From: Chloroflexota bacterium
Lineage (GTDB): Bacteria; Chloroflexota; UBA11872; VXOZ01
Length of the DNA stretch: 64,000 nucleotides
NCBI GenBank assembly: GCA_965220015.1
Contig: OZ244798.1
Span: 3,298,063 to 3,362,062 of the forward strand
Direction: 5' to 3'
Below are positions 46-53,035 of this stretch, in pieces. Positions within the stretch are counted from its first letter, which is position 1; each line of letters begins with the position of its first letter. The translations under genes and the position numbers were made by a program. The notes under the pieces are model-generated. The model saw only the letters and a program-made list of their open reading frames with translations, searched no databases and was not told the origin of the DNA.

Positions 46-906
46 TCAGTCACCCGCCACCTGCGCCGCGCATTCGCGCAAGTAGCGTATGCCCTCGCGT
101 GCCTGTACTTCCGCGTGCGGCTCGAACTCGAAAATCTCGATAGAGACGTAGCCATCGTAGCCGGTGTCGTGCAGAGCCTGCATGATGGGAACAAAATCAG
201 TATCCCCGTAGCCCGGCCCTTTCATGTTCTCATCGTTGGCGTGAAAGTGCGGGAAATCGCCGGCGTGCGCCCGGATAATGTCGGCAGGCGGCGCGGCTTC
301 CCCGCTTTCCATGGCCTTCACGTCGAGGTGCAGCTTGAAGGCGGGGTGATCGACCCGCCGCACGAGATCGGCGCCCTCTGCCGCATTCGAAATAAACTTG
401 CACAGCGGCGGCGCCAGCGGTTCGATGGCTATGATGGTCCCGGCCTGCTGCGCTTCAGCGCACACGCTCTGAAATACCTCGGTTGCGTACGCCATGCCCT
501 GCTCGTAGCTCACGCCTGCCGGCAGATTGCGCTGGTTCGGTGAACCGAAAACAAGGTACGGCGTGTTCATATCGTGGCCGAGCGCGATCAATCCCCGCAG
601 GTAGTCAGCAGTGCGCTGCCGCACCGCCGCATCGGGGTCGGTAAGATGAAGCCCATCGGGTCCTACCAGCAGCCAGTGCAGCCCCACGATCTCGAGTCCG
701 GCATTGGCCGCCGCTTGCCGGGCCGACGCCCGCTGGTCCGCAGTGATGTCAAAGACCGATTGTTCAAAGGTGAACGGCGCTGCCTCGACACCCTCATAGC
801 CAAGTTCCGCCAAGTAATCGCAAATCCGCCCAAAGTCCCAGTTCTCGAAGGCTTCGTTGCAGAATGCATATCGGAATGCCATCGCATACCCATCCTTTAT
901 TGCCAT
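46..906 (-). CDS. sugar phosphate isomerase/epimerase (xylose-isomerase-like TIM barrel)
   Basis: ORF 46..1137 minus. The conserved part starts at MAIKDGYAMAFRYAF (ATG about 906); the upstream extension is an Arg-rich TTG-start artefact. AP-endonuclease-2/xylose-isomerase-like TIM features (HLDVKAMESGE, EIFEFEP). Confidence 0.65.
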   Translation of the reverse strand: MAIKDGYAMAFRYAFCNEAFENWDFGRICDYLAELGYEGVEAAPFTFEQSVFDITADQRASARQAAANAGLEIVGLHWLLVGPDGLHLTDPDAAVRQRTADYLRGLIALGHDMNTPYLVFGSPNQRNLPAGVSYEQGMAYATEVFQSVCAEAQQAGTIIAIEPLAPPLCKFISNAAEGADLVRRVDHPAFKLHLDVKAMESGEAAPPADIIRAHAGDFPHFHANDENMKGPGYGDTDFVPIMQALHDTGYDGYVSIEIFEFEPHAEVQAREGIRYLRECAAQVAGD

Positions 907-1179: not shown

Positions 1180-2187
1180 CTAGAGCGTCACCTCACGGTC
1201 CTCGCGCGCCGACGTGTACATGGCTTCCAGCAACTCCACGGACCTGCGGCCCTCCGGCCCGGTGCAAGCAACCGGCTTGCCGTCGCGTAAGGCGCCGATC
1301 ATGTCCTCGATGATGTTCTGTGGCGCGTCGGGTAGCTCAGCGAGGTCGGGCGGTGCTCCATCAGGGTTGTCGGCGAATTGCCAGGACGTAATCTCCTCCT
1401 GCTGCATCTGGATGGTGCCGTCGGTGCCGTGAATCTCGTGCACGTGCCCCAAGCCGCCGAAGACGGTCGTGGTGGTCTGGATGACACCCCACGCGCCGGA
1501 AGCATAGGTAACGAGCGCCTCACAGGCGTCTTCGGTCTCGATGTCGTGATTGAAGATATTGATGCGCGCCCGCACACTCTTCACAGGCCCCATGAACCAG
1601 AGAGTCTGGTCAATGCCGTGAATACCCTGGTTTGCCGCGGACCCGCCGCCGTCGTACTTCCAGGTGCCGCGCCAACCGGGCGGATTGCCACCGGAGAAAT
1701 AGCTATCGGCGCGGAACCACTTCAGCCGGTAGTCGCCAAAGATGGGTCGGCCGATCCTGCCCTCGTCCATCGCCTGCTTGATGAGTCGCGTGCCGGGCTC
1801 GTAGCGGCGCTGGAAGTCCACGGCCAGAATTTGCCCGCTCTGCTCTCCTGCGGCAATCACCTGGTCGATTTTCGCCGTGGTGACGTCCATCGGCTTGGTC
1901 GTGAACGTATGCTTGCCCGCTTGGAGGCTCTCGATAGCCAGGTCGCCATGTGTGCCGCTGGGCGTGAAAATGCCCACTGCGTCAATGTCCTGGCGCTCCA
2001 GCAAGGCGCGGTGGTCGGTGTGCCAGTCGCAGCCGTATTCCTCCGCCTGCGCCACGGCCAACTCCTCTTGCAGGTCACAGACCGCCACCAACTCCGCCCC
2101 CGCCGTAGTCGCCGCCTGCTTCACCCGCGACTTGCCGACGCCTAAACCGATAATGCCAAACCGAACCGGATCATGTTGCGATGTCAT
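1180..2187 (-). CDS. Gfo/Idh/MocA family NAD(P)-dependent oxidoreductase
   Basis: N-terminal Rossmann motif VRFGIIGLGVGK. Family-typical EKP-like core (HTFTTKPMD) and C-terminal alpha/beta domain. 335 aa. Confidence 0.8.
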   Translation of the reverse strand: MTSQHDPVRFGIIGLGVGKSRVKQAATTAGAELVAVCDLQEELAVAQAEEYGCDWHTDHRALLERQDIDAVGIFTPSGTHGDLAIESLQAGKHTFTTKPMDVTTAKIDQVIAAGEQSGQILAVDFQRRYEPGTRLIKQAMDEGRIGRPIFGDYRLKWFRADSYFSGGNPPGWRGTWKYDGGGSAANQGIHGIDQTLWFMGPVKSVRARINIFNHDIETEDACEALVTYASGAWGVIQTTTTVFGGLGHVHEIHGTDGTIQMQQEEITSWQFADNPDGAPPDLAELPDAPQNIIEDMIGALRDGKPVACTGPEGRRSVELLEAMYTSAREDREVTL

Positions 2188-2502
2188 AGGAATCTGTCCT
2201 CCTCAATTACATTTCTCGTGACGAAGGCGAATTACTACTCCCGATGGGATGTCCACTCCTAGTGTCTTCTCTTCCGTACACAGATGATACCACCATAAGG
2301 TCAATAGGCGAGTTCAGTCACTAATTAGCTGCTTGACACACCTTAGCAAATAGATTCCACTGCCATCGCAGACCAAGATTCCTTGACATCACTGTATGAG
2401 AACGGTTGTATAGGTAATGCTGGTTCGTGTGTTCAACTACGTAGTCTCGGGATAGACCTTGCATCCATCCAAACCAGATCCAATGAAAGCAAGGAACAAG
2501 CA

Positions 2503-3693
2503 ATGGACGGCGAGAAAGTAATCAAGTCTATCCGACTAGAGAACATCCTCTCCTATGGGCCAGATACTCCCGAGTTTGACTTGGAGCCCCTAAACGTCGT
2601 CATAGGTCCGAATGCTTCAGGAAAATCGAACCTCATTGAGGCTCTGTCAATTCTTGCCAACACGCCAAAGGACGTACAGGATCCGCTTCGAAAAGGCGGT
2701 GGAACCATTGAGTGGCTTTGGAAAGGAACCCAGGAACTTGGTAATGCGACAATAGAGGTAACCGTTGATGCACTTTGGAATCCTGTGCCTCTAAGGTATC
2801 GACTGTCGTTTACCGAGTTCTTTGCCCGCTTCGTGCTGAAGGATGAAGCAGTCGAGGATGCATACGCAAGTGCATCCGGGGAAGACCCGATCGTTTACTA
2901 CCAGTACCGAGATGGTAAGCCAGTGATAAGGGTTGAGGGGGCGACTCCATCCGAGCGGCCCCTAAAACGAGACGATTTGAAGACCGACCAATCAATTCTG
3001 TCCCAACGACGAGATCCTGATTCACTTACTGAGCTGTCTTTCCTCGTATTCCACTTTGAACGCATGCGATTCTACCGAGAATTTCAGTTAGGGCACGACT
3101 CCTCGTTACGAAGGCCTCAGCAAGCTGATCTTATCCAAGACTATCTGTTGGAAGATGGCTCAAACCTCGCAGCGGTATTGAGCTATCTGCTGAATCAACC
3201 CGCTATAAAGTCAAGAATCCTTGACTACCTTCAAGACTTTTATCCATCAGTTCAGGACATTCTTGCTGCTTTGATCGGAGGTAGCATACAGGTATCCTTC
3301 CATGAGAAAGGCCTATACCATCCAGTGCCTTCAACACGACTATCGGATGGAACTCTGCGATATCTCTGCTTGCTCGCCGTACTCTGTCACCCTGAGAGTC
3401 CGTCGGTGATTTGCATCGAGGAACCGGAAACGGGCTTGCACCCCGATGTTATCCCCAAGTTGGCTAAGCTCCTCGTCGAAGCGTCGGAACGCAGCCAAAT
3501 CATCGTCACTACGCACTCCGATATCCTCGTGGATGCACTGACGGATACTCCAGAGGCAGTCGTGATCTGCGAGAAAGTGGATGGCGCTACGCAACTCCGT
3601 CGCCTTGACGCAGACGCTCTCAAGATATGGCTAGAAGAATACCGACTCGGCGAACTCTGGACACGTGGAGATCTCGGAGGCAATGTCTGGTGA
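2503..3693 (+). CDS. ABC-type (AAA_21/OLD-family-like) ATPase, first gene of a two-gene ATPase plus TOPRIM-like module
   Basis: ATG at 2503 preceded by aaggaa RBS. Walker A GPNASGKSNLIEAL, Walker B/D-loop VICIEEPETGLHPD, H-loop TTHSD, as in OLD/AbiLi/AriA-type ABC ATPases. Lies in an AT-rich islet. Confidence 0.75.
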   Translation: MDGEKVIKSIRLENILSYGPDTPEFDLEPLNVVIGPNASGKSNLIEALSILANTPKDVQDPLRKGGGTIEWLWKGTQELGNATIEVTVDALWNPVPLRYRLSFTEFFARFVLKDEAVEDAYASASGEDPIVYYQYRDGKPVIRVEGATPSERPLKRDDLKTDQSILSQRRDPDSLTELSFLVFHFERMRFYREFQLGHDSSLRRPQQADLIQDYLLEDGSNLAAVLSYLLNQPAIKSRILDYLQDFYPSVQDILAALIGGSIQVSFHEKGLYHPVPSTRLSDGTLRYLCLLAVLCHPESPSVICIEEPETGLHPDVIPKLAKLLVEASERSQIIVTTHSDILVDALTDTPEAVVICEKVDGATQLRRLDADALKIWLEEYRLGELWTRGDLGGNVW

Positions 3694-4316
3694 GTGTCAA
3701 GGTCTACTTAGAAGGTGGCGGCAGTGGCTCAGACAGAAAGAGGCGAAAAGGCGGACGCTCAGAGCAGAGCAGCAAGTTCAGAGAAAGCTTTAGCAAGTTC
3801 GTGAGGCAGGTTGGGTTGACCGGCAGGATGCCGCAGTTTGTGCCTTGCGGGAGTAGGGAGACTGCATACAAGGACTTCTGCAGGGCAATTGCAAGCGGAG
3901 AAACCGCCCTCCTTCTTGTGGATGCCGAAAAGCCGGTAACAGTTCCAGGACCATGGCAACACCTTAAGGGCTCTGACAATTGGAACCGTCCTCGTTCTGC
4001 GACTGACGGCCACTGCCATCTCATGGTGCAAGTTATGGAGTCTTGGTTCCTTGCGGATACCGCCGCGCTCAAGTCTTACTTTCGCCAAGGGTTTCGAGAA
4101 GGATCGCTTCCACAGAACCCAAACGTAGAGGAAATCCCCAAGCAGGACGTTGAAATTGGTCTAAGACAAGCAACGCGTGGTACAAGCAAGGGCGCGTATT
4201 CCAAGGGAAAGCACAGTTTCGAAATACTCGCGGAGTTGGATCCTGCTGAGGTCAGATGTAAGTCGCCCTATGCCGAATGCTTCCTCTCCGCTCTTGAGCG
4301 ATTGTGCCAAACATGA
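3690..4316 (+). CDS. DUF4276 family protein (predicted standalone TOPRIM-like nuclease partner of the ABC ATPase)
   Basis: GTG start at 3690 overlaps the ATPase TGA stop (GTGA coupling). N-terminus VKVYLEGGGSGSD (conserved Glu) and later LLLVDAE (DxD/E-like) fit a TOPRIM-like fold. Same AT-rich islet. Confidence 0.6.
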   Translation: MSVKVYLEGGGSGSDRKRRKGGRSEQSSKFRESFSKFVRQVGLTGRMPQFVPCGSRETAYKDFCRAIASGETALLLVDAEKPVTVPGPWQHLKGSDNWNRPRSATDGHCHLMVQVMESWFLADTAALKSYFRQGFREGSLPQNPNVEEIPKQDVEIGLRQATRGTSKGAYSKGKHSFEILAELDPAEVRCKSPYAECFLSALERLCQT

Positions 4317-4394
4317 CTGCCCTCAGTCTCGGCTAGCCAAGAGCTTCTCCCTTACATCCGAGAACGGAAAGCAAGTACTCGGAAGTGTCCCGCA

Positions 4395-5243
4395 CTAGCC
4401 TGCTACCGGAGCCGCTGTCTCAGCGTCGCCGGTGATTAGGGCGTCCGGGTGGTCTTGGAGCAGCGTGGCCGGGTAGTGAGTGGAGACCTCGCCGAGCAGG
4501 GCGATGCGCAGGATGGCTTTTTGCCAGTAGCCGCCGTCGCAGTAGAGGCGGATGCGGCGGGACTCCAAGATGTCCTTCATGCCGATAGTGATCGCCATGG
4601 GCGGGAAGGTGTAGAAGTTGCCGCCGACGCGGCGGATGGAGTTCATCACCATCGTCTCCGGGGCTAACGGTAAAACGCGCGTGCGGGACTGGCGAAATTC
4701 CGCCAGCGTTACCTGATAGAAGCGGCTGATGGGCGGTTCGTTGAAGGCCACGTGCCCGTGAATGCCGATACCGCCGTAGCAGGAATCGATGCCGCCGAGC
4801 GCGGCGATCTTTTCGCTCACCTCGTCGATGCGCTCGATGCGCGGAAAGAAGACGTGGTCGTCCGGTATGCGCAGGTCGGGGTCGAGCTTCGCAAAGAACT
4901 CGCGGCGCATGTATCCCTCGAAGCTCAGTGGATGGTCGAGCGGGATCGAACGCCCTTCCCAGTCGCAGTATTCGTCCATATTGAAGGTCCACACGTTCTG
5001 CCACGAGATGCGCTCGCGATTGCAGATCTCGGCAAGCACCGGAAACTGGCCGATCGGGCCCACGGGCAGAATGAGCCGCGTTGGTTCGCCGGCGGCGTTG
5101 TGGGCTTTGATTTCGTCGGCGATTTCGCGGGCAAACGCTGCGTAGAGCGCCGCCCGATCCGGCACAACACACACCGGGATTTTCGCCTCGCGTCGCAGAG
5201 TCTCCGCTGGCAGTTTCAGCCACGCATCAATCTCCAGCCCCAT
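4395..5243 (-). CDS. glucosamine-6-phosphate deaminase/isomerase family protein (NagB-like)
   Basis: Motif GGIGIHGHVAFNEPP matches the NagB/6-phosphogluconolactonase family signature. Likely start at MGLEIDAWLKL. Confidence 0.7.
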   Translation of the reverse strand: MGLEIDAWLKLPAETLRREAKIPVCVVPDRAALYAAFAREIADEIKAHNAAGEPTRLILPVGPIGQFPVLAEICNRERISWQNVWTFNMDEYCDWEGRSIPLDHPLSFEGYMRREFFAKLDPDLRIPDDHVFFPRIERIDEVSEKIAALGGIDSCYGGIGIHGHVAFNEPPISRFYQVTLAEFRQSRTRVLPLAPETMVMNSIRRVGGNFYTFPPMAITIGMKDILESRRIRLYCDGGYWQKAILRIALLGEVSTHYPATLLQDHPDALITGDAETAAPVAG

Positions 5244-5967
5244 GTGTTGCGCTCCTTCTGCGTTCTGCACTTAATGTCTCTCGTCCAAGACCATCAAGCT
5301 ATGCGAAGTCGTTTCTCTCGACTTCCCCTGTGAAATAGCTCTTGATGGCGCTTACGAGCAGCCATTTCCTCGCCCTATTCAAACGGCAGAAACCGGCCCG
5401 CAGCTTACATACGTTGACCGTAGCGATGCCTCATATAGCTTACAAACCCATCTTGGCAGGCATTCCACGCGCGACTCGCGAAAATTTCTCAAATACAGGG
5501 TAATTCCATCGCGACAAAATTCCAATTCTGTTATCCTTTTGTTGGGATAAGCGACGCGCATTCCTTACGGCGCATTTTGCCTGGCAGAGGATGACAGAGG
5601 CGCGGCACGTGTAAGGCAGATTCTCGCTTCCACACTTCTCTAGCTCATCGGGAATTATACCCTCTTGAGCCTTTTGTGGTATTAGGAAACTGTCGCACCA
5701 AACGCTGCTCAGGGCCAAAGGCGCTCCGTTTGCGTTGGAGAGTACACTGTCTACTCTACCTTTAGCGCGCCATGCAGGCCTGTGCTCTCGGATGGCTGCG
5801 CGCGATAGCCGCGGCCTACCGGCCAGTACACAAAACACGGTGTTTTTCGTACAATAGAGACAGGTACACTACGGTTCGACCAGGGGTATGGTAAGCCACC
5901 AATATCGGCAGGGCAGCGCTGCTAGTTAACGAGTTTGCGAGCTTCAGGTTCGTCTTGGAGTGGGTCT

Positions 5968-6801: not shown

Positions 6802-7236
6802 TTCCTGGAATTGGACGCCTTGGATGCTCTGTCTCTGACCCCAGTGACGCCAATGTCTGGGTAACGCGGGAATTGAGTCCTCGCTCCCACCACGCACACG
6901 GGCGTAGTGCTGGCTTTTCCACGGACTTGGCCTGCCTTACCTTTTACTCGCCCTGACTTCCGTCCCGCAAGTGTGCGAGATTCCCGACCTCGCTCGTCAC
7001 AGCTCCCGGCCTGCTGCAGCGTTGACTATTAACCGGCATGAGTCTACCCGGCTGGAGAGTCTTCACGTGAGCCCCGCACGCGAAATCTTTGCTGTTGCGC
7101 GTCGCCATTGCACCGGCTCCACATCACTTGCGCACTCAAGCGGAGTTGCCGCGCCGCCGCAATAACGGTATCGTGAGAAGCCAGAATAGAACTACATGGC
7201 GGGCAGCACGGTGTCCTGCTGCGAGAGGAATTCCTT

Positions 7237-7827
7237 ATGCCGGTTGGCATTGCCACGCAGTTGACGCTCGCACGTATTGCGCTCGCCCCTGTCATTATGT
7301 TTCTCCTCATTTGGGGTAAGGACACGCCCCAATGGTATTGGCTGGCAACAGCCTTGCTCGCACTTGCAGCGGCAACAGATTGGCTCGACGGTTTTGTGGC
7401 GCGCCGCAGCGATACGGTTTCGGCAGTCGGGGCAACGCTAGACCTGGTGGCGGATAAGATTCTCGTTGCCGTGGTCTTGATTGCCCTCGTGCAGGTAGGC
7501 TTATTGCCCGGCTGGTGGGCGGCGGTCATAGTCTGTCGTGAAATGGCAGTGACCGGCCTCCGCACACAGGCCGCAGAGCGGGGCGTCTCCATTCCGGCAG
7601 GCCGCGCGGGCAAATTCAAGACCGCCGTGACTTTCCTCGCCTTGATCGTTCTCATCCTCTGGCAAAGTATCGTAAGCGACGTTCTCCTCTGGCTTGCCCT
7701 CATCCTTACGGTTTACTCCGGAGGAGAGTACCTGTACACCGGCATTCGCAAGATGCGAGACGCGAGCAACAGTCAGCCTCTGCAATCGCAACCACAATCG
7801 TCCAATAAGGAGGTACATGCAGAATGA
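7237..7827 (+). CDS. pgsA: CDP-diacylglycerol--glycerol-3-phosphate 3-phosphatidyltransferase
   Basis: CDP-alcohol phosphatidyltransferase motif DWLDGFVARR...GATLDLVADK. Multi-TM. 196 aa. Confidence 0.8.
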   Translation: MPVGIATQLTLARIALAPVIMFLLIWGKDTPQWYWLATALLALAAATDWLDGFVARRSDTVSAVGATLDLVADKILVAVVLIALVQVGLLPGWWAAVIVCREMAVTGLRTQAAERGVSIPAGRAGKFKTAVTFLALIVLILWQSIVSDVLLWLALILTVYSGGEYLYTGIRKMRDASNSQPLQSQPQSSNKEVHAE

Positions 7828-8714
7828 AAGTAGCCTTTATCGGTCTCGGCACCATGGGAATGCACATGGCAGTAAATCTCCGCAACGCCGGCCATGATGT
7901 CTATGCCTATAACCGTACGCGGAGCAAAGCGGAGGCGTTCGTTACCACCGGCGGGACGCTGGTGGAGAGCCCCCGCGCAGCGGCAGCGCAAGCCGACTTC
8001 GTGCTTTCATGCGTCTCGATGCCGGAAGACGTGGAAGAGGTCTTCCTGGGAGACGCCGGCGCAATTCACGGATCGCGCCCGGGCCAGGTGTTCGTCGATC
8101 ACAGCACTATTGACCCGGCAACGGCTCGCAAGGTTGGCGCCGCCCTCGCGGCAAAGCAAATCCAATTCATCGATGCCCCCATTAGCGGCGGCCCCATGGG
8201 AGCCGAAGCCGGCACCCTCGCAATTATGGCAGGAGGCGATGACGACGCCTTCGCCAGAGCAGAGCCGCTCTTCCAAGCCATGGGTGAGAATATCTTTCAC
8301 GTCGGTCCTCTGGGCGCGGGTTCGGTAGTAAAGCTGCAGAACCAACTGCTCGTTGGCATTAACTTGGCCGGCATCGCAGAAGCTATGGTGCTTGGGGCCA
8401 AGAACGGCGTCGACCCCGAAACGTCTTACCAAGTGCTTGGCACCGCCATGGGCGACAGCCGCATGCTGCACCGCGCCATGCCGGACTACATTCTGAAGCG
8501 CAATTTTGATCCGGCGTTCGCCATCAAACTCCTCGTGAAAGACCTGCGTTTGGCCACGCAACTCGGCCAGCAAGCCAGCGTGCGGCTGCTGCTCAGCAAC
8601 CTCACGCAACTCGTCTATGAAGAGGCCATCGCCCAAGGGCTGGCTGATGAAGATCAGACAGCCGTGGTCAAGCCGCTGGAATCGCTCGCCAAGGTGGAGG
8701 TAGCCAAGGCGTGA
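7824..8714 (+). CDS. NAD(P)-dependent 3-hydroxyisobutyrate dehydrogenase family oxidoreductase (2-hydroxy-3-oxopropionate reductase-like)
   Basis: MKVAFIGLGTMGMHMAVNL Rossmann N-terminus. ATGA overlap with the pgsA stop. 296 aa. Confidence 0.8.
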   Translation: MKVAFIGLGTMGMHMAVNLRNAGHDVYAYNRTRSKAEAFVTTGGTLVESPRAAAAQADFVLSCVSMPEDVEEVFLGDAGAIHGSRPGQVFVDHSTIDPATARKVGAALAAKQIQFIDAPISGGPMGAEAGTLAIMAGGDDDAFARAEPLFQAMGENIFHVGPLGAGSVVKLQNQLLVGINLAGIAEAMVLGAKNGVDPETSYQVLGTAMGDSRMLHRAMPDYILKRNFDPAFAIKLLVKDLRLATQLGQQASVRLLLSNLTQLVYEEAIAQGLADEDQTAVVKPLESLAKVEVAKA

Positions 8715-9781
8715 GCCCAACGGATGCCTCACCTGCCGACTCGACTCGTATTCCCGCAGCGCGCTTAGAGCAGTTTGCCCGGGACGTGCTCGTGCTTGAG
8801 GGCATTCACCCGAAGCATGCATCGCAATCGGCCCGGCACCTCGTGCTCTGCGACTTGCGCGGCGTCGAAACGCACGGCATCACGCGGCTCTCCGCACTGG
8901 CGCAGCGCATCCGCAACGGCGTCGTCAACGCCAACCCGGACATCCACGTCGAGCGGCAACGCGCTGCCTCCGCGCTGGTGGATGGTGATAACGGGCTGGG
9001 CGTACCGGTCAGCACGTATGCGACGCACTTGGCGATTCAATTCGCCCAAGAACAGGGCATTGGCACGGTGGGCGTTCGCAATAGCAACCACTTTGGCATG
9101 GCGGCCGATTACGCGTTGCAGATGACGGCTGCCGGGTGTCTCGGCATCGTGACGACCAATTCAAGCCCGGCCATGGTGCCCTGGGGCGCAGCCAAGAAGT
9201 TCTTGGGGACCAATCCCATTTGCTTTGGCGCGCCCACCCACGAGGCGCCCCTCATCCTCGACATGGCGACGAGCGTCGTGGCCATGGGACACGTGGTTCT
9301 CGCAGAAAAGCGCGGTCAACCCATCCCGGACTCCTGGGCGGTTGGACCCGACGGCCTGCCCACCACCGACCCGACCCGCGCCAGACAGGGCGGGGCGCGT
9401 CCGCTGGCCGACTACAAGGGCTCCGGACTCGCATTGATGATTGAAATCTTCACCTCGCTCCTTACAGGCGCAACCTTAGGCGTGCATTCCGCCGGGTTCT
9501 TCAGCGATATGAGCCGGCCCGCCGACGTGGCACACCTTTTCCTTGCAATCGACATTGCGGCCTTTTTGGAACTCCCATCGTTCAAGGATAGGCTGGCTGC
9601 GCTCCTCACGGAGATGCGAGAGCTCCCGCTGGCGCCTGGGTTCGACCGCGTCACCCTGCCCGGTGAGATCGAAGAGGAGCACATGTGTGACCGCAAGGCA
9701 AACGGCATCCCGATCGACCCGGCGGTGCTCGCGGACTTGCAGCAACTCTCCGCACAAACGGGAGTACCCTTGACAGTATGA
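8711..9781 (+). CDS. Ldh_2 family (malate/L-lactate/ureidoglycolate dehydrogenase type 2) oxidoreductase
   Basis: GTGA overlap with the upstream gene. Ldh_2-type motifs HGITRLS and NPICFGAP. 356 aa. Confidence 0.7.
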   Translation: MSPTDASPADSTRIPAARLEQFARDVLVLEGIHPKHASQSARHLVLCDLRGVETHGITRLSALAQRIRNGVVNANPDIHVERQRAASALVDGDNGLGVPVSTYATHLAIQFAQEQGIGTVGVRNSNHFGMAADYALQMTAAGCLGIVTTNSSPAMVPWGAAKKFLGTNPICFGAPTHEAPLILDMATSVVAMGHVVLAEKRGQPIPDSWAVGPDGLPTTDPTRARQGGARPLADYKGSGLALMIEIFTSLLTGATLGVHSAGFFSDMSRPADVAHLFLAIDIAAFLELPSFKDRLAALLTEMRELPLAPGFDRVTLPGEIEEEHMCDRKANGIPIDPAVLADLQQLSAQTGVPLTV

Positions 9782-9833
9782 ACATATCGCGCTCACCTAG
9801 CACTAGTCCGCACCCATTCTTGGAATATCCCTA

Positions 9834-11648
9834 ATGGCACTCCCCGTATTTGGACGCCAGGTTCTTATCGAGCGCGCCTATGGCATCTTGGAACAGGGCG
9901 GGAGCGAGATGCACATTGCAGCGCTCGCGCGCGCCGCCATGCAGATGGACGGCGATCTCCCCGACACGTTGCTGCGTCTCGTCGAAGATAGGCTTGTCGC
10001 CGACGGCCGCTTTACTCGGGACGCTGCGGGCCAGTGGGGACTGGTACAGTGGCAAAACCCTACTGACGACGCGCTCGGCGCTCAGGTATTCGTCGTGCTG
10101 GACGTTGAAACCACAGGGGGTATTGCCGGGCGCCACCGCATAATTGAGCTGGGCGCGGTGCGCATCTGCAACGGTGAAGAGATCGCGCGCTTTCAGTCGT
10201 TTGTAAATCCCGGACAGCGGGTCAGCAAGCGCATCTGGGAACTTACCGGCATCAGCGATGACATGCTGAGCGATGCGCCAACCGCGGGGCCGGTGCTCGA
10301 CGAATTCTATGCCTTTGTCGCCCACGTGCCGGTTGTCGGTCACAACATCGCCTCAGACTTCAGCTTCCTGCGCAACGAAGCGCTATGGACAAAGCGCCGC
10401 CCGCTCACCAATCCCGCCATTGATACGGTGACGCTGAGCACACGGCTATTTCCGGATCTCAAGCGGCCCAGCCTGGAGCGCCTGGCCCGTCACTTTGGTT
10501 TGAACGATGCGCCAAAGCACCGCGCCCTCATCGATGCCCACGTGACTGCCCAGTGTTTCGCGCGTCTGCTCCAGCAGATTCCTACTGAGCATGGGGCGAG
10601 CTTACAGACGTTCTTGGCATGGCTGGAAGGCGGCCAAGAGGCACGCGTGCCTGCCCACCGCGCCGCGCTGCAAGCGCAAATTCGGCTCCTGCCCTCGCTC
10701 CCCGGCATCTATATTTTTCGGGATAGCGAAGGGGCCGTGCTTTACGTGGGCAAATCCAAGTCGCTCCAGCGCAGAGTCCGCAGCCACCTTTCCAACCCTG
10801 ACCGACTCTTCGACGGCATGATCGAGCGGCTCGATCGCATTGATGTCGAAGTCACCGGCTCCGAATTCGAAGCGCTCCTCCGGGAAGCCCAAGTGATCCA
10901 GGAATTGCAGCCGGTCTACAACGTGCAGCAGCAGTATCGTCCCATGCAGCCCTACGTCCGCGTGTGGCGCAGCAAGACGGAGGGCATAAAGGTGCGCACG
11001 AGCAGTCGGCTGCGGCCGGATGATTCGGCGTACTTTGGGCCTTACCAGAACCGCGCGGCAGCAAGCTGGAATGCGCGCGTGGCGCGACGCGTGCTGCACG
11101 CAACTGCCGGTCTTTCGGCCCAGGACCAAGCGAATCTCGTGTTCCAATTCCTCGCGGAGGGGCCGGACTCGGTGGTAACCCACTGGCAAGAACGCAGTTC
11201 GGCCGAGGTAGAGGCGGCGCTGCGCATACTGCGCCGGCTCCGCGCGCACCACCGCCCACTCTCCGGCGGCTTTGCCGGTCACACCATTGTGCTCATCTAT
11301 CCTGCCGACCCGCCGGGCAAAGTTCACCTCTTCTTCGTCCGCAACGGTCAGATACTGGGCCGGGAAACGCTGGGGCCGGCAGCGGAAGCGGCATGTGACG
11401 AAAAGCTCCAGGCATTCTTTGCCCACTACCTCGCTCTGCCCGATTCTGCGGCGTCCGCGGATACGATTCGCCACTTCGTGCTGCAGTGGGTGTACCAGCA
11501 CCGCGATGACCCCGCGGTCATTCCCATCGATCCATCTCGCCTGCAAGACGCGATGACTGCGGCCGGCAAACGCCTCAAACGCTTAGGTGTGATCGAACCG
11601 GCGACGGCTGCGGAAACCCTTCTCTTGCAGGAGACACTGCTCGAGTAG
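9834..11648 (+). CDS. DnaQ-like 3'-5' exonuclease fused to a GIY-YIG (Cho/UvrC-N-like) nuclease domain
   Basis: DEDDh exonuclease motifs VVLDVETTGG, VVGHNIASDFSFL and HRALIDAHVTAQ, followed by the GIY-YIG motif GIYIFRDSEGAVLYVGKSKSLQRRV. Same architecture as mycobacterial Cho-epsilon fusions. Confidence 0.75.
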   Translation: MALPVFGRQVLIERAYGILEQGGSEMHIAALARAAMQMDGDLPDTLLRLVEDRLVADGRFTRDAAGQWGLVQWQNPTDDALGAQVFVVLDVETTGGIAGRHRIIELGAVRICNGEEIARFQSFVNPGQRVSKRIWELTGISDDMLSDAPTAGPVLDEFYAFVAHVPVVGHNIASDFSFLRNEALWTKRRPLTNPAIDTVTLSTRLFPDLKRPSLERLARHFGLNDAPKHRALIDAHVTAQCFARLLQQIPTEHGASLQTFLAWLEGGQEARVPAHRAALQAQIRLLPSLPGIYIFRDSEGAVLYVGKSKSLQRRVRSHLSNPDRLFDGMIERLDRIDVEVTGSEFEALLREAQVIQELQPVYNVQQQYRPMQPYVRVWRSKTEGIKVRTSSRLRPDDSAYFGPYQNRAAASWNARVARRVLHATAGLSAQDQANLVFQFLAEGPDSVVTHWQERSSAEVEAALRILRRLRAHHRPLSGGFAGHTIVLIYPADPPGKVHLFFVRNGQILGRETLGPAAEAACDEKLQAFFAHYLALPDSAASADTIRHFVLQWVYQHRDDPAVIPIDPSRLQDAMTAAGKRLKRLGVIEPATAAETLLLQETLLE

Positions 11649-11988
11649 GGAAGAGCCGTTCTTTTCTTGAAACTATGCTGAGGGCTCTTGTGCTCAAGTG
11701 TCCGCAACGCACGCGCGACCTGGACCCGGCACATCGCGGACTTTGCGGTCCAAAAGCGCGGCAGAGGGAGACAGGCTGCGGCAGACCTTTCCTGAGTCAC
11801 TTCCTAGTTTCAAAGCAAACCAACATTGCGCCGGTGGAGACTACCGCAGCGCGGGGGCTTGTCCCCCGCCCGGATTGAGACGAGCGCTTACCGATTGGGG
11901 TTTGTCAGTGTGACCGTGGTCTCGTTTCACTAGGAAGCGTATGACGATGGGTGCAGCCTAGGGTTGCACCCATCGTAACCTTCCCTGC

Positions 11989-37332: not shown

Positions 37333-37902
37333 CTACTTCGCTAAAGGTGAATTCTTAGATAGGCGAGCAATCGCATCTGGGTCAGGTAGATGGCTGAAAA
37401 GAGAGTCACCGAATGACAGGAGCTCCTCGTTCGACTCGCACTCAAACACCTCGTTGAGGATTAGACGGCAGTGATTGACCGTGAGTGCATCAATGATCGT
37501 CGATTCCCACGACCTTTTGCAGGGCCACGACTTTAGCACCGTAGCAGTTGGGGCGGCAGTTCGATGCTGAGATAATCGGTTGGCAAGATTCTCGGCGAAT
37601 CCAAATTTCAAGCGCTTCGGATCAAGTTCGGGCACAAGTTGAATAACATAGAATTCGCCATTGTCAGAAGTGGCCGCAGCGGCCGCAACACCATATCCTT
37701 CGCTCTCTCTTTGCCGACGGATAGTTTTCGCCTGTGAAGGTGAAACTGCTAAAGTGAGTTGATTCTTCGAGTCTGGAGTTCGGTGTTTAATTGGTTCAAT
37801 GGATGTTCTGTTCAAGACATATTTTCGCAGGTGCGAACGGTCCATACCAAGCTCAAGTGCTAGGCTCTTGAGAGATATGTATTCTTCGAACTCTGAAGCC
37901 AT
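37333..37902 (-). CDS. HTH plus GIY-YIG (T5orf172/MUG113-like) domain protein
   Basis: N-terminal HTH (ISLKSLALELGMDRSHLRKYV). C-terminal EFYVIQL...KFGFAENLANRLSQHRTAAP resembles the T5orf172 GIY-YIG domain. Strongly AT-rich flanks. Confidence 0.5.
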   Translation of the reverse strand: MASEFEEYISLKSLALELGMDRSHLRKYVLNRTSIEPIKHRTPDSKNQLTLAVSPSQAKTIRRQRESEGYGVAAAAATSDNGEFYVIQLVPELDPKRLKFGFAENLANRLSQHRTAAPTATVLKSWPCKRSWESTIIDALTVNHCRLILNEVFECESNEELLSFGDSLFSHLPDPDAIARLSKNSPLAK

Positions 37903-52196: not shown

Positions 52197-52478
52197 TCAG
52201 AGCACTTCATCAATGTGCGACAAGTAAATCGACAGCAGCCACACTTTGTTATTGTCGAAAGTGTAGTAGATAGCTACTGAACTACCAAGAGGAAGATCCA
52301 CCATTGGGATGAACCAAATGGGTGGGTCTTCACTTATTTGGGTTCCAGAAGCAGGATTTCGCGCCAGCGTCCATTCAACGGCTTCTGTGAACTCATCCGC
52401 GCGCAGTGGGTCGTCTTCGATTTTCTTTAGTTCCCGCTCGAAGCGATCTGTGCGGACGATATCACGAAAAACTGGCAT
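52197..52478 (-). CDS. small RelE/ParE-like toxin candidate (cognate of Panacea antitoxin)
   Basis: 93 aa. C-terminal pattern SSVAIYYTFDNNKVWLLSIYLSHIDE resembles RelE/ParE/HigB-fold toxins. 5 bp downstream of the Panacea gene. AT-rich. Confidence 0.45.
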   Translation of the reverse strand: MPVFRDIVRTDRFERELKKIEDDPLRADEFTEAVEWTLARNPASGTQISEDPPIWFIPMVDLPLGSSVAIYYTFDNNKVWLLSIYLSHIDEVL

Positions 52479-52483
52479 GGTAC

Positions 52484-53035
52484 TTATGCAAGGACTTTAT
52501 CCACCTCGTCAACCAGGCTAAGTCCGTATGCAATTTCCTGTTTTGACGGTTCACGTGAACTAATCAGGGCAATACTGTAAGGGATGGTCTCACCTTCGTC
52601 CGCAAGCTGCCAACCGATGAAATTGTGAGAGAAGTCGCTGATCTCTTTGGCGCTTCTGCCCCACCAATTGTCGATGACTTGCCGAACAATATCTATTTCT
52701 TCCGAAGAAAACAACTTGAGATCAGGCCTGCGCAAAGCAAGTGTGCGATTTTGCTCGTAACCGTAGTAATGCTCTGATCTCTCTGCGATCGCTCCCTCCG
52801 ATTGGAGTTCGTCGCGGATCGGCACTAGTCTCGTTGGCGCAGGACCGTTCGGCAAAGCCTGATACTCTGCCCATGTTATCGCATTGCCAAGCCGAAGATA
52901 AGCTAGGAAATCTGAGAGAAATAGCAGTTTATTGAGCTTGACAGCGCCGAAAGAGTCATCGCCTTCCGAACACAGCGCAATGTAGATGAGTAGTTCCTTG
53001 AACTTCCCTTCGTTGGGCACTGAATTCTTGCCCAT
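52484..53035 (-). CDS. Panacea (DUF4065/SocA-like) domain antitoxin candidate
   Basis: KLNKLLFLSDFLAYLRLGNAITWAEYQALPNGPAP matches the Panacea/DUF4065 core. 183 aa. AT-rich islet. Confidence 0.55.
   Translation of the reverse strand: MGKNSVPNEGKFKELLIYIALCSEGDDSFGAVKLNKLLFLSDFLAYLRLGNAITWAEYQALPNGPAPTRLVPIRDELQSEGAIAERSEHYYGYEQNRTLALRRPDLKLFSSEEIDIVRQVIDNWWGRSAKEISDFSHNFIGWQLADEGETIPYSIALISSREPSKQEIAYGLSLVDEVDKVLA

Follow-up and report, generated by a model that had tools for sequence, protein, structure and literature searches.

A HEC-01-type ATPase–Toprim gene pair with recombined divergent alleles at one fixed site in a Chloroflexota clade

Results

The gene pair and its conserved residues

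The window (the whole 64-kb stretch of DNA analysed here, from an uncultured Chloroflexota genome) carries two overlapping plus-strand genes, A and B, enclosed by two conserved host genes on the opposite strand (Table 1). The boundaries of both ORFs are identical in the public gene calls for a near-identical contig, and their homologues (393-405 aa for A, 192-210 aa for B) give alignments that start at residue 1. The original prediction, a 396-aa ATPase followed by a 208-aa DUF4276 protein with a GTGA overlap, agrees with both the ORF coordinates and the homologue alignments. In the Pfam search, which had been suggested as a check, A matched AAA_21 over the full model (1.1e-39) as well as AAA_15, while DUF4276 (1.5e-18) was the sole match of B, which gave no RloB match.

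The Walker A, Walker B/D-loop and H-loop motifs of A lie where they had been predicted and, like the ABC signature, are conserved in 83 homologues. A is an SMC/Rad50/OLD-class ABC ATPase with the full catalytic motif set. A transporter-type ABC domain had been named as a finding that would speak against the prediction; the pair contains no such domain accompanied by membrane partner genes. For B, a profile search of PDB sequences returned nothing meaningful, whereas fold comparison was informative and revealed the Toprim fold with its conserved Glu and an acidic motif of the DxD type, which here takes the form D-x-E. Across 88 copies, the two acidic sites highlighted beforehand, the Glu of VYLEGGG and the LVDAE motif, proved to vary little or not at all; B is a small Toprim protein of the OLD type that carries invariant acidic residues. 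In the subclade to which the B of the window belongs, the EGGG motif is followed by a basic insert of 10 residues. Approximately 86 of the 88 copies have intact reading frames, and only 2 of the roughly 88 are damaged. An apparent truncation of B in two relatives (L095 and L098; public calls of 179 and 135 aa) was rejected, as both frames are intact from the GTG start.

Table 1. Coordinates of the gene pair, its motifs, its flanks and its putative signals (window positions, or residues where marked aa).
Feature	Position	Strand	Remark
A (HEC-01A), 396-aa SMC/OLD-type ABC ATPase	2503..3693	+	ATG start
B (HEC-01B), 208-aa DUF4276 protein, OLD-type Toprim fold	3690..4316	+	GTG start
A, Walker A GPNASGKS	aa 35-42; 2605-2628	+	
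A, ABC signature LSDGT	aa 280-284; 3340-3354	+	absent from the motif list of the original prediction
A, Walker B/D-loop ICIEEPETGLHPD	aa 303-315; 3409-3447	+	
A, H-loop TTHSD	aa 336-340; 3508-3522	+	
A, variable inserts	~aa 80-160 and ~195-270		
B, E8 within VYLEGGG	3711-3713	+	candidate metal-binding; invariant in 88 copies
B, D78/E80 within LVDAE (D78-A-E80)	3921-3929	+	candidate metal-binding; D78 invariant, E80 is E in 87/88
B, E117	4038-4040	+	candidate metal-binding; invariant (88 copies)
B, D123	4056-4058	+	candidate metal-binding; invariant (88 copies)
Variable cassette (upstream spacer, A, B, downstream spacer)	2188..4394	+	
Left flank, Gfo/Idh/MocA oxidoreductase	1180..2187	-	Pfam; conserved host gene, outside the module
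Right flank, NagB/6-phosphogluconolactonase-like gene	4395..5270	-	weak Pfam match; conserved host gene, outside the module
Coupling junction	3676..3693	+	Shine-Dalgarno-like (SD-like) GGAGG (3676-3680) in the final codons of A, 9 nt ahead of the GTG of B
Probable promoter of A-B, TTGACA-N17-TTGTAT	2383..2411	+	~120 nt upstream of the A start; putative function
Conserved block GATACCACCA	2283..2292	-	minus-strand reading TGGTGGTATC(AT)

Translational coupling and regulatory signals

The GTG of B overlaps the TGA of A in the sequence GTGA (3690-3693). This 4-nt overlap recurs in 73 of 86 loci, across which the start codon of B is GTG in 62 and TTG in 8, and GGAGG or GGGGG is found in the loci listed (13 shown). 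A and B are thus translationally coupled via a conserved SD-like sequence and the 4-nt overlap.

Regarding transcription, the original prediction had pointed to a weak -35 element with no convincing -10. A consensus scan of positions 2100-4500 indeed called no sigma-70 promoter; however, the TTGACA occupies 2383-2388 rather than starting at 2384, and the arrangement TTGACA-N17-TTGTAT is kept in 14 of 20 clade loci, 118-125 nt upstream of A (190 nt in one), within an otherwise diverged spacer. It occurs once in the 64-kb window, with 0 occurrences expected by chance, and is the probable promoter of the A-B pair. When 17 upstream spacers were aligned, just one further conserved island emerged, the GATACCACCA block; its minus-strand reading, TGGTGGTATC(AT), is probably an extended -10 for the divergent Gfo/Idh/MocA gene, and the block lies outside the function of the module. 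The scan for terminators in 2100-4500 yielded one terminator-like site only, on the wrong strand and inside A, and the 3' spacer showed no significant folding (z -1.08).

Membership in HEC-01 and relationship to other systems

A PADLOC run, also suggested with the original prediction, assigned A to HEC-01A (PDLC04177; E 4.5e-160, 531 bits; protein residues 5-396 against profile positions 3-393 of 393) and B to HEC-01B (PDLC04201; E 4.1e-72; residues 1-205 against positions 1-199 of 202), and models of HEC-01B were the sole PADLOC matches of B. Both profiles are thus matched by adjacent genes on the same strand with a 4-nt overlap and, judging from these matches, the pair is a member of the catalogued candidate antiphage system HEC-01. 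To our knowledge, the Hma/BREX-like embedding by which HEC-01 was discovered is not required by the PADLOC model.

HEC-01 ("Hma-embedded candidate 01") was described as an ABC ATPase with a TOPRIM protein that has the OLD metal site (Payne 2024; 10.1101/2024.01.29.577857). Our pair agrees with it in domain content, in the order of the genes and in the metal-site residues of the Toprim protein; in contrast, the window copy is not embedded in Hma or BREX but stands alone between metabolic genes. The first representative tested gave no protection in E. coli MG1655 (10.1101/2024.01.29.577857), while a more recent study reported that, in E. coli B, one HEC-01 protected against one or more of the phages T7, T5 and T4, with only the AAA_21 domain annotated and without a fold-protection figure for HEC-01 (Nat Commun 2026; PMC12881386). 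The statement of the original prediction that no system with a DUF4276 partner had been named or characterised therefore fails, since PADLOC models the pair as HEC-01 and HEC-01 has already been tested twice in published work. The pair is not in itself new, and the claim of a new architecture is to be dropped.

Among other known systems, PARIS, which has a tRNA target and an Ocr-type trigger, differs in its effector: AriB is a DUF4435 protein of ~300 aa, whereas B is a 208-aa DUF4276 protein without an AriB match in PADLOC, and the sequence similarity between AriA and A is confined to the ATPase motifs. A does match the PADLOC "AriA" model PDLC02980 (1.8e-37), but this model is apparently generic, since its length (304) and match range equal those of Pfam AAA_21, and the HEC-01A models score far higher. 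In OLD nucleases (P2 Old, classes 1 and 2) and in GajA, the ATPase and the Toprim domain are fused and the second acidic motif is D-x-D, whereas here they form two coupled genes, split in 86 loci, and the motif is D-x-E. Unlike Gabija, the pair has no GajB-like helicase partner, and the PADLOC Old and ATPase-Toprim models match short ATPase stretches only. The pair resembles MADS and AbiL in that Mad3 and AbiLi are AAA_21-type ATPases with small Toprim-superfamily partners. DUF4276 has been described as part of the Toprim superfamily, with Mad4 reported as a homologue of it and AbiLii/RloB likewise as a Toprim-superfamily member (PMC12065111). Matches of A to the PADLOC mad3 and AbiLi models were weak (AbiLi 3.3e-26), and its score against the NCBIfam MAD3 equivalog NF047739 was 88 bits, below the cutoff of 420. 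B matched none of the mad4, AbiLii and RloB models in Pfam and PADLOC, and neither other mad genes, among them the mandatory mad6-8, nor a methyltransferase lie within 5 kb of the pair.

Genomic contexts and composition

The borders of the variable cassette coincide exactly with the Gfo/Idh/MocA start codon on the left and with the stop codon of the NagB-like gene on the right. The identities proposed for these flanking genes held, the former by Pfam and the latter through a weak Glucosamine_iso match (27.1 bits against a cutoff of 27). The stretch is also AT-richer than its surroundings, as originally noticed: its GC content is 0.47-0.55 against 0.60-0.64 outside (approximately 9-10 points lower), and GC3 is 0.50 in A and 0.56 in B against about 0.80 in the two flanking genes (25-30 points lower). 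The neighbours are metabolic rather than defence genes, those within 5 kb being metabolic or RodZ-like. We found no tRNA genes and no Rfam matches in the window, hence no integration-site signature, and no integrase or transposase adjoins the pair there. In one relative (L098), an rve-family gene lies 3 kb away and is probably unrelated.

Outside the clade, the pair is distributed patchily over many phyla and in unrelated contexts. Nesting within BREX/Hma-like systems occurs at a minority of loci, in one case (L111) in the order BrxF-BrxC-[A-B]-PglX-HEC-02A; at four further loci a DUF6079 (BrxC-like) gene lies upstream, and three loci have neighbouring DNA methylases (N6_Mtase). At most other loci, as in the window, the neighbours are not defence genes. 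A tblastn search of phage and plasmid collections with B gave no match, and a scan of IMG/VR found one contig, in which the pair sits inside a BREX-like system and not among phage genes.

A fixed site with exchanged alleles

Within the clade, the pair occupies the same site in every relative sampled (~16 distinct), including ~6 genomes found via the flank gene alone. The empty-site test was run through protein clusters of the flank gene and found no empty site among the ~16 distinct relatives, and in a metagenome scan that started from the flank gene, one close relative was recovered, which has the pair too. Such an absence of empty sites is unusual for an accessory defence gene. The fixed site also comes close to universal synteny with housekeeping genes, which had itself been named as evidence against the original prediction.

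Sequence identity among the relatives is 88-100% for the Gfo/Idh/MocA gene and 82-99% for the NagB-like gene, and 52-90% for A and B. Between the window and L095, nucleotide identity is 95-100% up to ~2174, 33-78% from 2174 to ~4400 and 84-100% beyond, with sharp borders at 2174 and 4400; dS is 0.035 in the Gfo gene and ~3.2 in A, and B is saturated. Moreover, the two genes give discordant identities (A 90% and B 66% between the window and L006; A 64% and B 81% between the window and L001), and L102 and L103 are identical save for a ~900-nt patch spanning A aa ~33-333. Both A and B are under purifying selection, with dN/dS of 0.09-0.2 (0.32 in one exchanged patch of A). The near-identical flanks, the saturated synonymous sites of A and B, dN/dS of ~0.1 and the sharp breakpoints together indicate old alleles exchanged by recombination. 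Rapid evolution in situ or positive selection was rejected as the source of the divergence, given the saturated synonymous sites beside near-identical flanks and the low dN/dS.

These observations change the meaning of the horizontally acquired islet that had been proposed: the same site is occupied in every sampled relative with no empty counterpart, so that recent acquisition is too simple a description, while lateral transfer itself stands in the form of exchanged alleles. Given this exchange, along with the unrelated contexts outside the clade, the pair is accessory by nature but, in this clade, fixed in its position.

Discussion

With a probability that we put at roughly 60%, the locus is a HEC-01-type two-gene conflict module, likely serving antiphage abortive infection, which has the layout of a split OLD nuclease or of PARIS and whose old, divergent alleles were recombined at one fixed site. 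The conflict or abortive-infection reading offered originally remains the best one. By analogy with the systems compared above, the most likely function is that of a sensor ATPase controlling a Toprim nuclease in abortive infection. A would dimerise on ATP, its variable inserts would sense a phage-derived trigger, and an A-B complex would keep B inactive until then; complex formation, trigger and substrate are all proposed here by analogy. The cleaved substrate is tRNA in PARIS and DNA in OLD and Gabija, and B, once released or activated, may cleave either in a metal-dependent manner, which would halt the infection at the cost of cell growth. At the fixed site, homologous recombination reassorts old, highly divergent alleles as well as, independently, the A-insert region and B; it proceeds through the flanks and the motif-coding DNA, both of which are conserved. 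Recombined divergent alleles at one site are the pattern expected for an immune gene under diversity-maintaining selection. Counting against a defence role are the metabolic neighbours, the lack of matches in the phage and plasmid collections, the lack of an empty site among the relatives sampled, and the one negative published HEC-01 test.

Some of these features would also suit an addictive, toxin-antitoxin-like selfish module, in which the nuclease B is the toxin, A acts as an ATP-dependent antitoxin or regulator of it, loss is lethal, the module can only be displaced by a recombining allele, and phage defence is secondary or absent. The site was never empty in ~16 distinct relatives, even in those found via the flank gene alone, its alleles are replaced and not deleted, and its neighbours in the window are not defence genes; additionally, Pfam describes AAA_21 as "putative AbiEii toxin, Type IV TA system", and AriA was named "antitoxin" by its PDB depositors. 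However, some homologues are nested in BREX/Hma-like systems, one published result shows protection (PMC12881386), and toxin-antitoxin and abortive-infection functions are compatible, PARIS having been described both ways. We regard addiction as the main role as unlikely.

Two further readings fit the data considerably less well. The pair could be a core function of the clade in DNA repair or chromosome maintenance, comparable to RecF (ABC ATPase) with RecR (Toprim) or SbcC/Rad50 with a nuclease, but saturated synonymous divergence beside flanks with dS of 0.03-0.2 is not seen in core repair genes, nor are discordant mosaic alleles. The GC3 deficit of 25-30 points relative to neighbouring genes, the patchy occurrence across phyla in unrelated contexts, a recF match of 30 bits (far under the family cutoff of 172) and best family matches to defence-candidate models likewise make a housekeeping role quite improbable. 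Still harder to credit is the view that the pair is what remains of an old insertion, decaying and without present function: the atypical composition and the lack of a consensus promoter or terminator in the scanned region would agree with decay, but dN/dS is ~0.1-0.2, frames are intact in ~86 of 88 copies with invariant catalytic residues, and both the coupling signal and the upstream TTGACA-N17-TTGTAT are conserved.

Returning to the HEC-01-type conflict module, it is a fair possibility, though somewhat less likely than not, that in this clade, which is probably sponge-associated, HEC-01 behaves as a single, fixed, hypervariable immune locus. In this view, alleles of deep divergence would be maintained in more than one species, recombination at conserved motif-coding DNA would shuffle the sensor region of A and the effector B independently of each other, and the site is never found empty. 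If so, the locus would reflect either selection that is balancing or maintains diversity, acting on a one-locus innate immune gene, or else addiction, with a module that is replaceable but never lost; moreover, A and B from distant alleles would have to stay compatible, and the conserved C-terminal tail of A (aa 370-396) might be what keeps them so. The clade can be used to examine the upkeep of a standalone defence module, setting diversity-maintaining selection against addiction. With one site, many divergent and mosaic alleles and near-identical flanks, it also provides a natural experiment usable for mapping specificity determinants. The alignments and models mark candidate residues for mutation (K41 and E307 of A; E8, D78, E80, E117 and D123 of B), as well as the variable regions that most likely carry specificity.

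Identity of the gene pair

The two overlapping ORFs of the original prediction, here called A and B, were borne out (see the table of features). Longer alternative starts are present (TTG 2383 for A, ATG 3627 for B) and are disfavoured: a 99%-identical contig has the 396/208-aa boundaries in public gene calls, A homologues are 393-405 aa long with an alignment that begins at residue 1, and B homologues are 192-210 aa long with a query coverage of 97-100%. Searches of PADLOC-DB matched both proteins end to end, A to the HEC-01A model PDLC04177 (4.5e-160) and B to the HEC-01B model PDLC04201 (4.1e-72), and the pair almost certainly belongs to the HEC-01 family.

HEC-01 belongs to the "Hma-embedded candidates". 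It has been reported as an ABC ATPase plus a TOPRIM protein sharing the OLD metal-binding site, and it gave no protection against the phages tested in E. coli MG1655 (bioRxiv 10.1101/2024.01.29.577857). In E. coli B, a cold-seep HEC-01 was reported to be protective against one or more of T7, T5 and T4, with no figure given for HEC-01 (PMC12881386); other surveys still rank the system as an unvalidated candidate (PMC12853721). DUF4276 itself has been placed in the Toprim superfamily and reported as a homologue of Mad4 in the MADS system (PMC12065111), and appears among the AAA15/21-associated domains in a PARIS phylogeny (PMC11464382). The domain-level interpretation was right. The accompanying claim, that systems with a DUF4276 partner had been neither named nor tested, was out of date, since the pair is HEC-01, catalogued in PADLOC and tested in two studies.

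Features of the window
Feature	Position	Strand	Remarks
Gfo/Idh/MocA gene (left flank)	1180-2187	-	
A (HEC-01A)	2503-3693	+	ATG to TGA; 396 aa
B (HEC-01B)	3690-4316	+	GTG start overlaps A stop as GTGA; 208 aa
Basic insert region of B	3726-3770	+	residues ~13-27
NagB-like gene (right flank)	4395-5270	-	
Gene-free stretch	5271-5934		~660 nt; GC ~0.51
ORF within gene-free stretch	5440-5838		132 aa
Third AT-rich ORF	37333-37902	-	189 aa; GC 0.488; GC3 0.48
Second AT-rich islet	52197-53035	-	GC 0.49
93-aa ORF	52197-52478	-	5 nt downstream of SocA/Panacea gene
SocA/Panacea antitoxin-domain protein	52484-53035	-	183 aa; PF13274, 1.2e-15

Properties of the two proteins

Pfam AAA_21 matched A across the full model (1.1e-39), and AAA_15 matched as well. 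All the predicted ATPase motifs are present and, like the ABC signature LSDGT, which the prediction had not listed, are conserved in 83 homologues. The next matches were PtuA (score 19.1), retron ATPases, AriA (16.8), Eco8 OLD (15.7), T. scotoductus OLD (13.8) and GajA (13.1). No transporter nucleotide-binding domain scored above 12.5 and NCBIfam transporter models lay far under their cutoffs, so that the check for a transporter-type ABC protein came out negative. Comparison with PDB structures revealed that A reaches AriA, OLD, PtuA and GajA solely via its C-terminal ATPase motifs. The least conserved, recombining part of A comprises aa ~80-160 and ~195-270. Its C-terminal tail (aa ~370-396) is highly conserved, in part because a ribosome-binding site is embedded in the same codons, and is a candidate docking element; the last 14 residues (aa 383-396) have low confidence in the monomer model.

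The assignment of B to a DUF4276/TOPRIM-like family was upheld by profile search (Pfam DUF4276, 1.5e-18) and by structure prediction. The AF2 model (pLDDT 87) has a four-stranded alpha/beta core with E8 after strand 1 (EGGG), D78-x-E80 after strand 3, and E117 and D123 after strand 4; as modelled, these acidic residues are placed as Toprim needs. Among 88 copies, E8, D78, E117 and D123 are invariant and residue 80 is Glu in 87. No sequence relative of B was found among solved structures. Just past EGGG, the B of the window and its closest alleles carry a basic 10-residue insert within SDRKRRKGGRSEQSS, missing from most homologues; pLDDT falls below 50 at residues 13-21 of this region.

A genome scan placed an A homologue immediately 5' of B in 80/80 loci. 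Coupling was analyzed in 86 loci with near-full-length A, comprising the scan loci, related contigs found via the flank gene, and the window. The 4-nt overlap occurs in 73 of them; the start codon of B is GTG in 62 and TTG in 8. A Shine-Dalgarno-like GGAGG/GGGGG lies 8-12 nt 5' of the B start, within the codons for the conserved C-terminal "GDLGGNxW" of A. Together, the overlap and this sequence are a conserved translational-coupling device, and thus A and B would be co-expressed, probably in fixed proportion.

A fixed site with exchanged alleles

The window is part of a 3.56-Mb chromosome from an uncultured member of the Chloroflexota, in which A is present at 100% identity. Ten related genomes found via B carry the pair at exactly the site of the window, between the Gfo/Idh/MocA and NagB-like genes. 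To avoid circularity, a second search was seeded by the flanking Gfo gene alone, and revealed AAA_21 plus DUF4276 at the same site in every contig long enough, representing ~6 distinct genomes (L095, L098, L100, L102/L104, L103, L105/L106); three short contigs stop inside A. There was no empty site among the 10 B-seeded and ~6 Gfo-seeded genomes. A distant Gfo homologue (59% identity, open-ocean metagenomes) has different neighbours. Host names suggest that many homologues come from marine sponge symbionts.

The predicted AT-rich stretch is evident in windowed GC (0.47-0.55 between ~2200 and ~4400 vs. 0.60-0.64 outside) and in GC3 (A 0.50, B 0.56, the two neighbouring genes ~0.80). The pair shows a GC deficit in all 18 loci of the clade, where the mean is -8.5 points; of 63 loci in other taxa, 90% share it, and the mean there is -5.3 points.

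Protein identity among relatives is 88-100% for the flanks, 56-90% for A and 52-81% for B, and the three are mutually discordant. Against related locus L006, the window shares 90% in the Gfo flank, 90% in A and 66% in B; against L001, the values are 96, 64 and 81%; loci L004, L010 and L017 compared pairwise give 97-98, 56-63 and 62-66%. L095, from the sample that also holds a near-twin of the window (L093), shares 98.5% (Gfo), 60% (A) and 52% (B) with the window, and sliding nucleotide identity runs at 95-100% to ~2174, 33-78% to ~4400, and 84-100% thereafter. In the sliding comparison against L006, A (82-98%) exceeds the flank (76-91%), with a break at the A/B junction. Contigs L102 and L103, which come from separate samples, show no difference across ~4.6 kb outside one ~900-nt patch in A (65-90% identity). 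This patch covers residues ~33-333, has its limits at the segments coding for Walker A and Walker B, and is a clean case of exchange within a gene, here of the presumed sensor region.

dS is saturated in A and B (above 1-3) vs. 0.03-0.2 in the flanks, and dN/dS is 0.09-0.2 (0.32 in the L102/L103 patch). Hence, the alleles are old, functionally constrained and moved by recombination rather than by fast in-place evolution. The low GC originally predicted for the islet stands; "recently acquired" gives way to a constant site at which old alleles are exchanged laterally.

The upstream spacer diverged along with the cassette, except for two islands. TTGACA-N17-TTGTAT, ~120 nt 5' of A, occurs in 14/20 clade loci and once in the window; none was found outside the clade, and three further short contigs carrying it are clade members by their Gfo gene. 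The second island is GATACCACCA, whose opposite strand, TGGTGGTATC(AT), probably serves the divergent Gfo gene as its -10 element.

Between B and the NagB-like gene, where the window has ~85 nt, some relatives carry extra DNA (~1.2 kb in L001, ~10630-11900; 0.3-0.4 kb in L003, L010 and L105), suggesting that the site may accept additional cargo downstream of B. In L098, an rve-family integrase/transposase gene (7096-8067) lies on the far side of the Gfo gene, ~3 kb away from the pair.

Putative function

We favour a defence or conflict role for the pair (probability roughly 0.65-0.7). Outside the clade, the genes directly next to the pair are varied and for the most part metabolic; the minority of defence type comprises DUF6079/BrxC-like ATPases, DNA methylases, Uma2, Fic and Schlafen/AlbA_2. 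In the IMG/VR contig L111, the pair is nested as BrxF-BrxC-[A-B]-PglX-HEC-02A, the embedded arrangement by which HEC-01 was defined. The HEC-02A-like ATPase (9392-10426) after PglX makes two different embedded ATPase candidates in one BREX-like system. The B subfamily of the window had no match in plasmid and isolated-phage collections.

Taking OLD nucleases, Gabija and, most of all, PARIS as models, we tentatively propose that A dimerises on ATP and that its variable inserts (aa ~80-160 and ~195-270) would form a sensing surface; B would be held back by A until a phage cue is met and, once freed, would cut nucleic acid, thereby aborting infection. The locus-level pattern is a modest addition and offers a practical handle on specificity determinants.

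An addiction (toxin-antitoxin-like) module would account for the lack of empty sites and for replacement without loss; we consider it rather unlikely as the explanation, and it is compatible with abortive infection. A RecF/RecR-like housekeeping function conflicts with the allele pattern, with the composition and with the patchiness of the distribution. Purifying selection and intact frames contradict a decaying remnant; of ~88 copies, just two were damaged, a B with an internal stop and an A with a frameshift. A defence or conflict role remains our preferred reading.

Other AT-rich features of the window

The gene-free stretch, flanked by the NagB-like gene and a RodZ-like HTH gene, shares 98-100% identity with L095 and only 64-72% with L006, and had no match in Rfam; the ORF within it had none in Pfam and is probably spurious. 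The third AT-rich ORF, which lies amid high-GC genes and matched nothing in Pfam or PADLOC, may be another laterally acquired gene. Neither protein of the second AT-rich islet matched PADLOC; the two genes look like a Panacea-type toxin-antitoxin pair.
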